Below are positions 6,834-22,316 of a stretch of DNA of 34,903 nucleotides, piece after piece; within the stretch, counting starts at the first letter, position 1, and each line of letters opens with the position of its first letter. This stretch comes from a virus. The DNA is taken from the IMG/VR virus record IMGVR_UViG_3300033402_000340; one strand, 5' to 3'. The notes under the pieces were generated by a model. That model made no database searches, was not told the DNA's origin, and worked only from the letters and a program-made list of their open reading frames with translations. The translations under genes were made by a program, and so were the position numbers.

Positions 6834-7508
6834 ATGCCATATATTTACGAAATTTATGGCATATATTCGACTCATCCAGCAGATACTCGAATTTTCGGCG
6901 TAAATTTTCTCGTGAGTAACAAAGGTCGACCCGGCTGGCTCCCAACTTTGAAGGATCTATTTGGTCCGGCCAAAGTAATTCCTCATAGGGAGCGATCGAC
7001 GTCCGTAAAAACCACTAAACTGCCGGAAGAATTGGATCCGAGTTTGTCTGTAGACCTTGGAGATCTTGAACTGAGAACAACTCAAACTGAATCTGAAAGA
7101 ATTGCGCTTCTTCCTGCGCCACCGCCTATTGGGTTTGAACCAGATCTTTCTGAGTTCGGAGTAAAGGAACCGACTTTCGGATACCGAAGCGACCCTTCCG
7201 AAAAGCAAGGTTCCGGAGCGGGTGGTTACGACTTGAACGGGTCATATTTTGCCGATGATGTCGATTTGACAGATTTCGGTGGTCTTTGGGTCGTAGTGGA
7301 TCGCGGAGATGCTAAGAGCAGACCCGCAGGCACTCAGCGTTATGGAGTCTGCCGTGTGGATGACCAGCCGGGGAAAGTGGATCACCGACGCGATATGCGT
7401 GAGCTCGGAATCCAAATTCGACCTTCGGAAGGAATCGGTGAGTCTTACGAAGAAGCTTGTAAGAGTGCAGAGCAGATGAATTTCATAGAACTAGACATGA
7501 ACTCATGA
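6834..7508 (+). CDS. hypothetical protein; tail ...IELDMNS. The true start is probably internal (e.g. GTG near 6912).
   Basis: The first ~40 nt coincide with a conserved intergenic palindromic motif that is also found at 22272-22316. Confidence 0.45.
   Translation: MPYIYEIYGIYSTHPADTRIFGVNFLVSNKGRPGWLPTLKDLFGPAKVIPHRERSTSVKTTKLPEELDPSLSVDLGDLELRTTQTESERIALLPAPPPIGFEPDLSEFGVKEPTFGYRSDPSEKQGSGAGGYDLNGSYFADDVDLTDFGGLWVVVDRGDAKSRPAGTQRYGVCRVDDQPGKVDHRRDMRELGIQIRPSEGIGESYEEACKSAEQMNFIELDMNS
6835..6875. repeat. conserved intergenic motif, copy 1: TATGCCATATATTTACGAAATTTATGGCATATATTCG, with inverted arms TATGCCATA/TATGGCATA
   Basis: Repeated at 22272-22316 (ATATGGCATATATTTCGGAAATTTCTGGCATATGATCGG). 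Confidence 0.5.
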
Positions 7509-7789
7509 GCGAAGAAGTTGGTAAGAATTTGAGACGACAATGGATTCAGGTCAAGCATTCAGAATTGATCCGATATTCTGACGACAGTCCGTATAGATCT
7601 GAATGCCCTCATTGCGCTTATAATCCACCAGGAATTCTTTTGGTCGTTAGAACTAATGGTGGCCTTTCTCGTTTGGATCATTGCTCAGGGTGTGGACAAC
7701 AGTATATCTATACTGACGACACAATTAACGGAGAAGCTCTCTCCCCGACGATTGAAGAATGTTTGGTTGGGGAGATCATGGGATCATGA
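7505..7789 (+). CDS. small zinc-ribbon protein; tail ...LVGEIMGS
   Basis: CPHC...GCGQQ motifs. ATGA overlap. Confidence 0.55.
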   Translation: MSEEVGKNLRRQWIQVKHSELIRYSDDSPYRSECPHCAYNPPGILLVVRTNGGLSRLDHCSGCGQQYIYTDDTINGEALSPTIEECLVGEIMGS

Positions 7790-8010
7790 CTCAATCACCA
7801 ATGGACCCTGCTGGTAGTTATTTCAATTGCCGATTTCAATACGCGTCGGGTAAAACCTGCGGGAGCCCGACTCGAAATGCATTCATCATGAAATGGGGCA
7901 ACGTGAAGTATCGATGTCCAAACCATAAACTAGATTTCATTGAAGTCCGTTTTCTAGTAGAAGAAGTAACAGTTGAAGAAGGTCTTGTGTTTGAGGTTAT
8001 GAACATATGA
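7786..8010 (+). CDS. small Cys-containing protein; tail ...VFEVMNI
   Basis: ATG at 7786 (ATGA overlap), in frame with the longer 7759 ORF. Confidence 0.5.
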   Translation: MTQSPMDPAGSYFNCRFQYASGKTCGSPTRNAFIMKWGNVKYRCPNHKLDFIEVRFLVEEVTVEEGLVFEVMNI

Positions 8011-8330
8011 CCACCGAATCAATCACAAAAAAGAGAGGACTTCAACGTCGAATTGGGATCGCTCCGACGTCGACCATCCGAATTACAGAAGCTCGTTTGC
8101 GAGCTCTCATTTTAGAGGTCCTACCGACAGATTCCTCCAAACGAATGGCTATTTCTGGTGTCCTGTATGCGATTGAAGATAAGCTTCAAGCTCGTCCGAT
8201 GATCGAATCATCGAATGGACGATCAATTCAAGGTTGGCACTTGGTCCAACCTGGTGACGTCAGATTGGCAATTTGTAGGCTGACGAACAAGGTTAAATGG
8301 GATGGAATGTTCCCATATCGCATCAAATGA
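8007..8330 (+). CDS. hypothetical protein
   Basis: 107-aa ORF. ATGA overlap. Confidence 0.5.
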   Translation: MTTESITKKRGLQRRIGIAPTSTIRITEARLRALILEVLPTDSSKRMAISGVLYAIEDKLQARPMIESSNGRSIQGWHLVQPGDVRLAICRLTNKVKWDGMFPYRIK

Positions 8331-8348
8331 AATTCAAAGACTATAGGA

Positions 8349-9002
8349 TCATGAGGTAATAACATCGGCCGCAATTTGAGTTTCGATGAGATATAGGATG
8401 AATTCTCGAGCCTGGGGCTCAGTGAACCATCCTTGGAGATTGCAAGTGCAATTCATGTCATCTGCAGTCATTACTACTTGTCGTCCTGTTCCAACCCATT
8501 CACTCCACATCTTGACAATATGCTCGAATCGCCACCGTTCGAGCTTAGTCCCTGTAGTGGAACCTTCAACTTTGATCAGAAGCTTATTGGAAACGAGATC
8601 CTGACCACATGATACCTTGAGTGTCATGTTCGAGAATCGACTCACTAGCTCTTGTAAATCTCTACTCCATTGAGTCCGCTGTAGCCACGCTTTGTAATCT
8701 GCAGCGGATTTATTTCCGTGCAGGATCGCGCTTTGAATATAGTGGAAATCTCTCCACCTATCGCCTTTCCAACGCTTAGGCATGGAGATATAATGTCTCT
8801 TCTCTGAAGAGACAGGTGAAGATATTCCGGAGACAAGGTAGACCGTTCCGTCGTAAAAGGCGCACGGGTATTTGAAATCATCCACAATTAATGTGCATTT
8901 GCCTCTGGCTCCCACCGTGATACTGGCTTCAATTCCGTAATGTGACAGAGCGGCGAGAAACCGGCTTTGTGTGCGCGAGACGCGCGATTCGTAAGAGCTC
9001 AC
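8349..9002 (-). CDS. hypothetical protein (the only clear minus-strand gene in this block)
   Basis: 217-aa ORF. A divergent intergenic region lies at 9003-9075. Confidence 0.55.
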   Translation of the reverse strand: MSSYESRVSRTQSRFLAALSHYGIEASITVGARGKCTLIVDDFKYPCAFYDGTVYLVSGISSPVSSEKRHYISMPKRWKGDRWRDFHYIQSAILHGNKSAADYKAWLQRTQWSRDLQELVSRFSNMTLKVSCGQDLVSNKLLIKVEGSTTGTKLERWRFEHIVKMWSEWVGTGRQVVMTADDMNCTCNLQGWFTEPQAREFILYLIETQIAADVITS

Positions 9003-9075
9003 TTGTTCATTACTCGAGCCATGGCCAAATTTGCGTGTATGCTAGATTTCGAACCGTTGCGCGTACAACACGCGA

Positions 9076-21139: not shown

Positions 21140-21306
21140 TTAGAACCTCCATTATCTGACGACCTTGACTTACACTTACGACCCTTTGAGGGTACTAAAC
21201 TCATTTAGTCAATATCTGAACAACCCTGCCGCCCGTCCATTATGTACTATCAGAAGTGGCCAGCTGATCCGAGTATCGAGATCTGAGGCTGGTCAGCCCA
21301 ACCTGT

Positions 21307-21516
21307 ATGAACGACATCCCCGAACTTGTACCCAAACACCTCCTACACAATTTTTCCTTCGTTCAACTAAATCTTCAACAATTGGAAATCTTGAATGGCT
21401 TGAAGGAATGCAAATTCTGCGGGATGAGAGTATCTATCCTCAGGAAACCACAGTACTACATGAAGCTCATTGAGCCGTGCCCCTATCAAATTGTAAAGGA
21501 GGTCATGGATCAATGA
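21307..21516 (+). CDS. hypothetical small protein; tail ...IVKEVMDQ
   Basis: 69-aa ORF. Confidence 0.45.
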   Translation: MNDIPELVPKHLLHNFSFVQLNLQQLEILNGLKECKFCGMRVSILRKPQYYMKLIEPCPYQIVKEVMDQ

Positions 21517-21992
21517 AATTCGTTCGAACTTCTCATTTCTTTGTTCGAATGCAGGAACCATCGCCGAGAGGCGGAGAAAGCCTGATGGTTCTTCAAGTCT
21601 GGTTCGATTGGGCCTCTATCACATTTAGAGCAGTCGGCGTTTGGGAAGACGACGATGCCAATGACTGCACGACGATTTATCATGAAGACCATCATGATTT
21701 CGGATTGATGAATGATGGGTCCGTTCAAGAGATCGCAAAAGCTATCAATAATAGCGATCTCGAATGGTATTTGGCAGTTATCAACAGGTGCCTTTCTCCC
21801 TCTGATCCTCTTACCGCGGGCGAAATGGATGGAATCATCACACAGTTAGTCATGAAGCTCGTGGTGATTCCATCTTTCGAAAACCCGGAAGAAACCTGGT
21901 TGGATCAGTATTTCCCGGAGTTTGCTGCGGAACAATATGACAAAATCAATCTGGCTCGCCGTAAAATCGTAGAAAAAATCATGGAGTCGTAA
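21513..21992 (+). CDS. hypothetical protein; tail ...IVEKIMES
   Basis: ATGA overlap at 21513, in frame with the 21477 ORF. Confidence 0.55.
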   Translation: MKFVRTSHFFVRMQEPSPRGGESLMVLQVWFDWASITFRAVGVWEDDDANDCTTIYHEDHHDFGLMNDGSVQEIAKAINNSDLEWYLAVINRCLSPSDPLTAGEMDGIITQLVMKLVVIPSFENPEETWLDQYFPEFAAEQYDKINLARRKIVEKIMES

Positions 21993-22259
21993 ATGTCGTC
22001 GCATGATAAAGAAGAACCTTCCCATGACATCCACACGATGCATGTGAATCACAATCTACGAAAAGATCCAGCCTCTGGCATGATCGGCGTACGCACTTGT
22101 CCAGAACGAGAGATTTTGATAAGAGCATTCATGGACAAGAGTCCATACGCCGCAGAGCAGCTAGCCTGTGAAATGACCACGGATGCGGCTCGAGAATTTG
22201 CACATAGGATTTTGGAAATCGTTGACTTTGTTGAAGTTCGCAAAATCATGGTCTCGTGA
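21993..22259 (+). CDS. hypothetical protein; tail ...VRKIMVS
   Basis: ATG lies just after the upstream TAA. Confidence 0.5.
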   Translation: MSSHDKEEPSHDIHTMHVNHNLRKDPASGMIGVRTCPEREILIRAFMDKSPYAAEQLACEMTTDAAREFAHRILEIVDFVEVRKIMVS

Positions 22260-22271
22260 TCAACGAGTCTT

Positions 22272-22316
22272 GAATATATGGCATATATTTCGGAAATTTC
22301 TGGCATATGATCGGCT
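22272..22316. repeat. conserved intergenic motif, copy 2, in the 62-nt gap upstream of ORF 22322
   Basis: Same TGGCATATATTT-CG-AAATTT-TGGCATAT core as copy 1. Confidence 0.5.

Follow-up and report, generated by a model that had tools for sequence, protein, structure and literature searches.

The operator arrays of the lambda OR/OL type consist of two or three near-palindromic, graded sites of 17-19 bp that lie on one face of the helix and are clustered at two places in the genome, between genes. The KorB operators of IncP plasmids (TTTAGC-S-GCTAAA) are single 13-bp palindromes serving as sites for one global regulator, and the classic iteron layout is known from the plasmids pPS10, R6K, F and P1 and from the lambda origin. 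The early promoters of jumbo phages are conserved AT-rich motifs of ~10 nt that are centred near -10 and differ from phage to phage (PMC7598289), and the PeSL cassettes of T4-type phages combine a stem-loop terminator with a sigma-70 early promoter and occur in many copies (PMC2839356, PMC4122927), marking insertions and deletions in the hyperplastic regions of T4-like phages (PMC4122927). Next to nothing is known of the regulation of the hundreds of small genes in uncultivated huge phages, for which a sharply defined cis-element provides a concrete handle.

The analysis of a 34,903-nt stretch of viral DNA (IMG/VR record IMGVR_UViG_3300033402_000340; hereafter the window) reveals two arrays of near-palindromic boxes of 17-19 bp, with the consensus RAATATATG-S-CATATATTY and the core TGGCATATA. 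Two boxes lie at 6828-6868 (site c1) and three at 22272-22334 (site c2), and at both sites the centre-to-centre distance is exactly 22 bp, or two helical turns, which places all boxes on one face of the DNA. Judging from sequence, these arrays may be cooperative protein-binding sites that act as an operator or as an internal promoter control, a reading that we favour while holding it to be somewhat short of probable.

Two phased arrays in the window

Site c1 (6830-6866; ATATATGCCATATATTTACGAAATTTATGGCATATAT) is a true palindrome of 37-41 nt. It comprises box 1 at 6828..6846 (TAATATATG-C-CATATATTT; centre 6837, matrix score 27.1) and, 22 bp from it, box 2 at 6850..6868 (AAATTTATG-G-CATATATTC; centre 6859, score 27.2), and its left box reads TGCCATAT on the plus strand, with TGCCA, and TGGCATAT on the minus strand. 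The gene upstream (6624..6830, plus strand) encodes a 68-aa zinc-ribbon protein that lacks the usual VMES tail and whose last ~9 codons are AT-rich and box-like; a degenerate box-like sequence (ATATACCATAT, 6807..6817), weak and out of phase, lies within the 3' end of this ORF, 25 bp 5' of box 1. Box 1 includes both the upstream stop codon TAA (6828-6830) and the ATG at 6834 from which the longest downstream ORF runs (6834..7508, plus strand, 224 aa, predicted start), so that ORF calling leaves a gap of 3 nt. The motif itself encodes this ORF's first 11 residues (MPYIYEIYGIY), and since a search for its relatives found none, which makes it an ORFan, the start at ATG 6834 is uncertain.

Site c2 (22274-22308; ATATATGGCATATATTTCGGAAATTTCTGGCATAT) is nearer to a direct repeat than to a palindrome. 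Its box 1 (22272..22290; GAATATATG-G-CATATATTT; centre 22281, score 28.0) is followed at 22 bp by box 2 (22294..22312; AAATTTCTG-G-CATATGATC; centre 22303, score 20.2) and, after another 22 bp, by a weak box 3 (22316..22334; TAACATATG-G-CAGAGCATG; centre 22325, score 10.0). The latter (ATATGGCAGAG, with TGGCA at 22323) includes the start codon ATG 22322 of the next gene, and its variant TATGGCAGAG is an edge box in locus L014 as well. The spacer carrying c2 (22260..22321, plus strand) is a real intergenic gap of 62 nt without a Shine-Dalgarno sequence, and it separates an 88-aa gene (21993..22259, plus strand) from the gene of a 67-aa zinc-ribbon protein (22322..22525, plus strand), whose start is confirmed by the N-terminus of an ortholog (MAEHVW vs MVNHVW). 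The first-pass annotation had described a palindromic motif shared by both positions and lying in real gaps; a motif is indeed present at both, but the palindromic description suits c1, whose left box reads TGCCA, better than the more direct-repeat-like c2, and the gap is real at c2 while c1 overlaps the start of the ORFan.

The window motif is genuine and beyond chance. The sequence TGGCATAT occurs four times in the window against 0.39 expected, a count of at least four being reached in 0 of 100 shuffles; a 35-nt degenerate pattern matches only c1 and c2 in the window and yielded no match in any of 100 shuffles; and pairs of position-weight-matrix hits were absent from shuffled sequence. The similarity between the two sites spans ~50 nt (6825-6876 vs 22268-22319), and they differ mainly in the central base of the odd palindrome ATATG[G/C]CATAT, which is G or C in the boxes while the rest is unaltered. 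Matrix scores on the reverse strand nearly match those on the forward strand, and the orientation of the arrays relative to the genes was therefore not used as evidence. No further copies were found in the 44 kb scanned, which comprised the window and 9 kb to its right, several assemblies having contigs that end at the window's left edge. A lack of additional copies genome-wide had been named among the things that would count against the proposal; these 44 kb contain none. Copies do occur in other phage lineages, and as an argument against chance these weigh more than further copies in the same genome would.

Arrays in other huge-phage lineages

Among the matches listed, 22-bp-phased arrays stand at gene junctions in ~9 other huge-phage lineages with a GC content of 0.43-0.60 (loci L014/L022, L184, L060, L065, L090, L156, L180, L276/L314, L004/L316 and L319). 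The link between these loci and the window phage is provided by homologs of g12268 (window protein 12268-12963), of the ligase and of protein X, or by arrays of small proteins that end in the same C-terminal tail. Arrays hold two to four boxes: three in c2, L014, L065 and L276, four in L184, and two in c1 and many others. Strict pairs occur once per 300-400-kb IMG/VR contig; L090 carries two arrays, one of them with the variant TAGCATATA, and L004/L316 carries three within one 140-kb contig. Tandem 22-bp direct repeats make up arrays in L276 and L004, and the second L004 array is a perfect long inverted repeat (18/18 bp), such that a direct and an inverted version flank one small gene. These direct-repeat and perfect inverted-repeat patterns fit iterons or hairpins as well as they fit operators.

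Most of the instances outside the window were found by patterns fixing the core and the 22-bp spacing, so that the core sequences of most of them are not independent evidence. The phasing was further examined by a scan without spacing constraint across all related loci, in which 20 of the 22 adjacent box pairs at most 70 nt apart were separated by exactly 22 bp. It also holds for boxes required by no search pattern, namely c2 box 3, box 1 of L014 and of L065, boxes 1 and 4 of L184, the third box of L276 and the second L004 array. Boxes occur only as phased arrays, with no isolated single box in ~0.5 Mb of related DNA. Conservation at one position is illustrated by the array 5' of gene Y, which L014, L184 and L276 all retain despite an identity of only 34-50% among their Y proteins; when L014 is compared with L184, the spacers have diverged but the box cores persist (TATATGGCATATAyTTCGyCAAT, TGGCATATAyT). 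This retention at one position with conserved cores indicates that the sequence is under purifying selection.

In every case the arrays are flanked by co-directional genes; mostly they start 1-6 nt past the upstream stop codon and fill nearly the whole spacer, and the genes downstream of them vary by lineage. The 43 kb examined of the closest large relative (L206, 436 kb) carry none, nor do 12 other loci bearing the vault-like gene, and any such system would thus be dispensable or restricted to certain lineages. At the L206 junction orthologous to c2, the gene corresponding to the 88-aa gene overlaps the next one directly (..VMGS* TGATG), which marks the 62-nt spacer as an insertion or a deletion. 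The mahaphages LR756500 and LR756501 have no motif and share only a vault-like gene (43% identity). Among the matches listed, a metagenome scan returned mainly unrelated 22-bp tandem repeats, a Bacteroides/Phocaeicola element and a conserved coding stretch; a genome scan for relatives returned none, and neither megablast of 20 kb nor blastn of the motif against INPHARED gave anything useful.

A candidate protein-binding array and its rivals

Protein binding, dimeric action and a transcriptional output are what we infer for the arrays. A sequence-specific protein would bind each box as a dimer, neighbouring boxes being bound cooperatively, with the strong inner boxes occupied first and the weaker TGSCAGA edge box last. 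Once filled, the array would govern transcription that enters or begins at the genes downstream, as an operator or a region of internal promoter control between the otherwise tightly coupled genes of small-gene arrays. Odd palindromes, a free G/C centre and near-equal scores on the two strands are expected of a two-fold symmetric binder, while RNA folds that differ between instances and the lack of a U tract point to recognition of DNA sequence and not of RNA structure.

Candidates for the binder were sought among the encoded proteins. No helix-turn-helix or other regulator domain was detected in the ~40 window proteins or in the array-adjacent genes of relatives (Pfam, PHROGs), and no gene family is common to all array-bearing loci, so a shared neighbour was rejected as candidate since no gene adjoins every locus. 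Protein X and the g12268-like gene, both unannotated, stand near arrays in several lineages but are also present in the motif-less relative. The earlier suggestion that the nearby zinc-ribbon proteins are linked to the motif is unsupported, given that such proteins are equally abundant in the motif-less relative. A bolder version of the protein-binding reading, which we regard as rather unlikely, would have the array as a portable regulatory module of one huge-phage clade, inserted stop-to-start between coupled small genes, where a clade-specific binder would divide lengthy polycistronic arrays into units under separate control. Its 22-bp unit would be deployed as direct or inverted repeats, forming a protein-operator counterpart of the T4 PeSL cassettes, and the binder might possibly be a fast-evolving small zinc-ribbon protein with a conserved C-terminal tail.

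The first alternative to be weighed, to which we assign a small but real chance, is that the boxes are phage-specific promoters whose ~10-nt core TGGCATATAT is read by a phage RNA polymerase or a sigma-like factor, with repeated boxes serving as tandem promoters for internal transcripts in small-gene arrays. In a genome of 50% GC the arrays stand out as AT-rich islands with a TATATT in each box that resembles a -10 element, they separate genes of one direction, and in L004 and L156 a Shine-Dalgarno sequence and a start codon come after the last box with suitable spacing; a resemblance to the jumbo-phage early-promoter motifs (PMC7598289) adds to this. Many upstream copies would be typical of that promoter class, but the copies here are too few (two arrays in 44 kb, one strict pair per 300-400-kb contig and none in the 43 kb of L206), and in c2, the L090 variant array, L060 and L184 the last box either overlaps the start codon or is separated from it by 0-10 nt, too close for a normal start site to fit. 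A promoter leaves the palindromy, the free G/C centre and the exact 22-bp phasing unexplained, and the invariant GGCA plays no part in how sigma-70 recognises a -10 element. A sigma-70 promoter was rejected for want of a conserved -35 element, and a sigma-70-type scan placed candidates only 5' of the boxes (6786-6815 and 22222-22249), none overlapping them. A sigma-54 promoter (TGGCAC-N5-TTGC, with GG at -24 and GC at -12) fared no better, for TGGCA does occur, yet TTCG or TCG stands at -12 and TGCCA in many boxes, and a Bacteroidetes-type promoter (TAnnTTTG) was rejected because its final G is not conserved. No multisubunit RNA polymerase gene was found among the ~40 window proteins searched with Pfam or the 16 searched with PHROGs. 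Of the initial proposal of a promoter, an operator or a regulator's site, then, near-palindromic 22-bp-phased boxes at the gene junctions of distant relatives fit cis-regulation, while its promoter component is weakened by the missing sigma-70 overlap, the low copy number and the closeness of the last box to start codons.

Less likely again, and in our view improbable, is that the arrays are replication iterons at which a phage initiator opens an origin, while inverted-repeat versions of the core could serve that initiator as its operator, a scheme known from iteron plasmids and the lambda origin. Two to four repeats with a 22-bp period match the classic iteron layout, a single genome can contain both direct and inverted versions of one core (c2 vs c1; the two L004 arrays), and strict arrays number one or two per genome. 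Several lineages have an array 0-3 kb downstream of the conserved pair formed by protein X and the g12268-like gene, with ligase and nucleotide-metabolism genes close by, and a conserved AT-rich sequence lies beside the L014 and L184 arrays. Against this, no initiator, helicase loader or DnaA box was detected nearby, most sites have only two or three boxes, the 62-nt c2 spacer holds no clear AT-rich unwinding element, and GC skew has no inflection at c1 or c2. The distance of 15 kb between the two window arrays and the presence of three on a single 140-kb contig are likewise at odds with an origin, and the absence of the array from the orthologous junction of the nearest relative would be odd for an essential one. 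If it were a true origin, it would be a first candidate for this huge-phage clade.

A selfish or recombinogenic intergenic cassette of the PeSL or REP/MITE kind, without a dedicated regulatory role, would be a short palindromic repeat inserting at gene junctions or promoting exchange between them, and we consider it a poor prospect. The missing c2 spacer in L206, the position of c1 beside an ORFan, the way arrays follow stop codons closely and occupy nearly the whole spacer, the differing downstream genes and the parallel with PeSLs at insertions and deletions of T4-like phages (PMC4122927) all speak for it. The copies, however, are far fewer than in known REP, MITE and PeSL families, the only possible target-site duplication (TGATC, at c2 only) is unconvincing, no transposase or recombinase is associated, and the gene-Y array and its cores are retained at one position across 34-50% protein identity.

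Least probable of all is an action in mRNA, where the AU-rich boxes, some with AUG, would be a hairpin or protein site controlling translation initiation, RNA processing or stability between otherwise translationally coupled genes: strong hairpins at c1 (-15.6 kcal/mol, z -6.3), L156 (z -4.8) and the second L004 array, the confirmed AUG inside c2 box 3, the closeness of boxes to start codons at several loci and the c2 spacer's lack of a Shine-Dalgarno sequence agree with it, but z-scores range from -0.9 to -6.3 with differing pairings and no common fold (c2, L014, L184, L090 and L060 fold differently, z -0.9 to -2.7), the would-be central pair is G opposite G in half of the arrays, and it is the primary sequence that is conserved, compensatory changes not being seen. 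An intrinsic terminator or structured RNA was rejected, as there is no GC-rich hairpin with a U tract, the folds differ, and Rfam 15 gave no match at the gathering score for either site.

Comparison with known systems

The arrays define an element that is conserved across lineages whose proteins share 30-50% identity and yet gained or lost at individual gene junctions, and they show the insertion of regulatory sites into tightly coupled gene arrays. Their presence and absence across genomes can be used to nominate the binding protein, and they can help to delimit transcription or replication units in metagenome-assembled genomes.

Set against phage-specific early promoters, the window arrays are palindromic, phased and rare, whereas phiKZ and AR9 encode their own RNA polymerases and have motifs that are single, asymmetric and present in tens per genome (PMC7598289); what the two have in common is a phage-specific AT-rich motif of ~10 nt 5' of early-type array genes (PMC7598289). 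Iterons of plasmid and lambda-type origins differ in that the repeats here are few, more than one array exists per genome, one array is missing from a close relative, and no adjacent initiator gene, AT-rich unwinding element or DnaA box was found; the 22-bp period, the tandem direct repeats of L276 and L004 and the coexistence of direct and inverted versions of one core per genome are shared with them. Unlike KorB operators, the boxes form phased arrays and no ParB-family protein was seen here, but the odd palindrome with a free central G/C and the few copies dispersed at gene junctions are alike.

The PeSL cassettes have a stem-loop terminator followed by a sigma-70 promoter, both absent from the arrays, and are not restricted to few copies as here. 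Both are short conserved intergenic cassettes at insertion/deletion junctions among small, variable early genes (PMC2839356, PMC4122927), a setting found here in the c2 spacer relative to L206 and in c1 beside the ORFan.

The lambda OR/OL-type arrays, by comparison, have spacings of 23-24 bp against exactly 22 bp here; the present arrays belong to a huge phage and stand within long co-directional small-gene arrays, and they neither overlap sigma-70 -35/-10 elements nor adjoin a repressor or helix-turn-helix gene, with no regulator encoded nearby (Pfam, PHROGs). They nonetheless share with lambda the clusters of near-palindromic, graded sites placed between genes at two points of the genome, and, as in operator arrays, at least two pseudo-palindromic sites of 14-20 bp are phased on one face of the helix.

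Phased arrays of palindromic boxes at two gene junctions

Comparison of the two motif sites, c1 (about 6826-6876) and c2 (about 22268-22334), reveals similarity over about 50 nt that resolves into boxes of the form RAATATATG-[G/C]-CATATATTY, an odd palindrome with the core TGGCATATA. In c1 the two boxes have their centres at 6837 and 6859; the three of c2 are centred on 22281, 22303 and 22325, and every neighbouring pair is 22 bp apart. Because the box centres of c1 are C and then G, the entire site is a 37-41-nt palindrome, and because all three centres of c2 are G, that site reads as a direct repeat. 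The ~40-nt palindrome described in the first-pass annotation is recovered as a motif at both sites, but each site is a row of boxes and not one 40-nt palindrome. The array motif is real and conserved. The window contains TGGCATAT four times where 0.39 occurrences would be expected, a count reached by no shuffle, and a 35-nt degenerate pattern matched only c1 and c2 in the window and nothing in the shuffles. A motif search of the kind that the annotation had called for gave no third site over the 44 kb covered, with no further copies, single or paired, in the window and the 9 kb recovered to its right.

Both sites had also been placed in real intergenic gaps, which is correct for c2 (a true 62-nt gap), but the gap at c1 is only 3 nt by ORF calling. 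There, the stop of the upstream ORF falls within box 1, and the 224-aa downstream ORF starts at the ATG of the same box, with an N-terminus (MPYIYEIYGIY) encoded by the boxes. This start is predicted only, since no homologs of the ORF were found anywhere searched. The same artefact is seen at the second array of the related locus L004, where the ORF caller begins inside a box though a clear Shine-Dalgarno sequence and ATG come after the array. The third c2 box (TATGGCAGAG) is weaker and contains the start codon of the downstream gene, ATG 22322, which was confirmed as the true start by alignment with the ortholog from a 436-kb relative.

Genomic setting

The window phage is an uncultivated huge phage (50% GC) encoding an ATP-dependent DNA ligase, RtcB, a nucleoside hydrolase-like protein, NT5C, EF-Tu, endonuclease VII and an HNH protein, together with about 20 tRNAs and one RNase P RNA. 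A major-vault-protein-like gene (18581-21139, minus strand; 852 aa) carries shoulder and repeat domains (Pfam MVP_shoulder, 9.6e-30; Vault_3); its product has 42-68% identity in 13 IMG/VR huge-phage contigs. The gene is 43% identical to that of phages LR756500 and LR756501 (462 kb and 735 kb), which have nothing else in common with the window and lack the motif, and no close relative was found among deposited phages.

The plus-strand genes are mostly small, often encode zinc-ribbon proteins and overlap stop-to-start (ATGA). A conserved C-terminal tail, approximately V-R-x-[VI]-M-E-S, is shared by dozens of small proteins that are unrelated in other respects and in many cases carry CxxC..CxxC zinc ribbons. 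The stop codon comes directly after the tail and is overlapped by the ATG of the next gene (DNA ..GTCATGGAGTCATGA). Examples include plus-strand genes ending at 2791, 10138, 10663, 13178, 13447, 21992 and 23353 in the window and, outside it, genes of L079 (60-3703), L060, L004/L316 and L156. The tail is kept across the clade in variants such as VMES, VINS and VLES, and might act as a signal for targeting, degradation or coupling.

Several other features were observed. About 20 tRNA genes are packed into a dense array at 25881-34354, with the EF-Tu gene (30609-31886) in its middle. Flanked by tRNA-Asp and tRNA-Ala within this array is a full-length RNase P RNA of bacterial class A (32798-33134, plus strand; Rfam RF00010, E 3e-93, 287.6 bits where the gathering score is 100); our literature search found no paper naming RNase P RNA together with phage-encoded or huge phages in such a sense. 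ARAGORN also calls a permuted tmRNA (33123-33756), probably a spurious prediction, which overlaps three tRNAs. A 63-nt repeat is present in four copies (26953-27015, 27408-27470, 27693-27755 and 27931-27993) that are 68-79% identical, and those at 27408, 27693 and 27931 each have a tRNA-like T-arm after them (..GGTTCGAATCCA); they could represent atypical tRNA-like genes, or genes with an intron or long variable arm, missed by ARAGORN and Rfam. Several perfect palindromes of 18-20 bp, among them TCGTACGGCGCCGTACGA, ACGTTACCAATTGGTAACGT and TCGTGTGGATCCACACGA, lie at 33280-33297 in the window and in related loci (L075 11493-11512 and 14978-14995; L079 19981, the same as L206 19934; L206 12617, 13731 and 15610), far above the roughly 0.1 expected per 35 kb, and may mark further protein-binding sites or form hairpins. 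In at least four independent assemblies of the window phage, contigs break off no more than about 760 nt from the window's left edge (1-760), a possible sign of a genome terminus, a repeat or a hypervariable region.

Conservation of the arrays in related phages

Related loci (L-numbers) were collected by pattern scans of IMG/VR and metagenomes, in which most matches were chance or unrelated 22-bp tandem repeats; among the matches listed, we kept those demonstrably or plausibly of the window phage's clade. A homolog of g12268, the window protein at 12268-12963, links L014 and L022 (contigs of 307 and 184 kb; three boxes), as well as L276 and L314 (257 and 127 kb; three tandem 22-bp units), with protein X also present in L276. 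The four boxes of L184, from a metagenome, occupy a site orthologous to that of L014. L090 (13 kb) has two arrays, one with TAGCATATA, a ligase 50% identical to that of the window and a g12268 homolog, and L065 (362 kb, GC 0.60; three boxes) is tied in by protein X, common to L014, L184, L090 and L206. Tailed small genes connect L060 (393 kb; two boxes; a zinc-ribbon gene array), L156 (short contig; two boxes) and L004/L316 (a single 140-kb contig; three arrays). L180 (short contig; two boxes) is linked by a close sequence match to c1 only, and L319 (197 kb; a weaker pair) by a distant ligase homolog. Contigs that bear arrays include two of the window phage itself (98 kb and 76.7 kb; ENA ERZ27256877 k141_979558) and the IMG/VR records 3300032233_002382 (307 kb), 3300012980_000004 (393 kb), 3300037608_000209 (362 kb), 3300027754_000034 (257 kb) and 3300032053_000010 (140 kb).

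Across all these loci, 20 of the 22 neighbouring box pairs are spaced at exactly 22 bp, with spacing unconstrained and with boxes that no search pattern required. The flanking genes are always co-directional, and arrays often start 1-6 nt past the upstream stop codon and fill the whole spacer. An array upstream of gene Y (~100 aa; 34-50% identical) is kept in L014, L184 and L276; its overall nucleotide identity of 64% is not above that of flanking genes, and conservation is concentrated in the box cores, which are maintained between L014 and L184 where the spacers have diverged.

Protein X (~240 aa, ending ..PALKF[PV]G) is conserved, with no match in Pfam or PHROGs, and maps to L014 2474-3917, L184 5767-7129, L090 4817-6362, L065 1288-2061, L276 12432-12887 and L206 9135-9863. 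It adjoins the g12268-like gene in L014, L184 and L090, precedes a box array by 0-3 kb in several lineages and, in L206, has the vault-like gene on one side and the c2-equivalent junction on the other.

L206 and L079 derive from the 436-kb contig IMG/VR 3300032782_000001, the closest large relative, which is syntenic with the window (identity 83% for RtcB, 68% for the vault-like protein and 35-70% for many small genes). No boxes were found in the 43 kb sampled from it, and at its c2-orthologous junction one gene overlaps the next (..VMGS* TGATG, MVNHVW..), in contrast to the window with its 62-nt spacer. The motif was likewise not found in 12 other loci carrying the vault-like gene. Its recurrence in the clade, together with these absences, indicates an element that is ancient in the clade and has been gained or lost at individual junctions.

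Candidate function of the arrays

Our observations concern the anatomy and conservation of the arrays, from which we tentatively infer operator-like control regions at gene junctions, with protein binding and a transcriptional output. Each array would be DNA to which a symmetric protein binds cooperatively, as suggested by palindromic boxes with a free central G/C, spacing of exactly two helical turns, strong inner and weaker edge boxes, occurrence as arrays only, and conservation of sequence rather than structure. No regulator, initiator, recombinase or transposase domains were detectable in the genes neighbouring the arrays, and no gene family common to all array-bearing loci was found.

A phage-specific promoter would fit the AT-rich core and the geometry of the L004 and L156 arrays, but it is unlikely given that arrays are rare and that some boxes sit on start codons, and it leaves the box symmetry unexplained. 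Neither terminator-like nor sigma-70-like sites were found on the boxes at c1 and c2, the only nearby sigma-70-like candidates lying upstream (6786-6815 and 22222-22249). A sigma-54 promoter was ruled out by a mismatched -12 element and the TGCCA boxes.

Replication iterons are a rather improbable reading: neither an initiator nor an unwinding element was found and the array is missing in a close relative, although it is in keeping with a period of 22 bp, with direct and inverted versions occurring together, and with a position near protein X and its conserved partner, the g12268-like gene. More doubtful still is a mobile or recombinogenic cassette, which the insertion/deletion at the c2 junction and an ORFan neighbour might suggest, but which is at odds with low copy number and long retention upstream of Y. 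Least probable is an mRNA element, as the arrays lack a common fold: strong RNA hairpins are predicted for inverted-type arrays only (c1 and L156), direct-type arrays fold weakly and differently, no U tract follows the arrays, and Rfam gave no match at c1 or c2.

With the operator-like reading preferred, the arrays constitute a new sequence family within a familiar kind of element, the phased, putatively protein-binding repeat, in an uncultivated huge-phage clade; their precise insertion between genes otherwise translationally coupled is an added point. In L004 (IMG/VR 3300032053_000010, reverse-strand 820-1320), a small tailed, cysteine-rich gene (134 aa) has an array on both sides, with an 18/18-bp perfect inverted-repeat array just 5' of the Shine-Dalgarno sequence and a tandem direct-repeat array just past the stop codon, an arrangement reminiscent of a plasmid rep gene with its operator and iterons.
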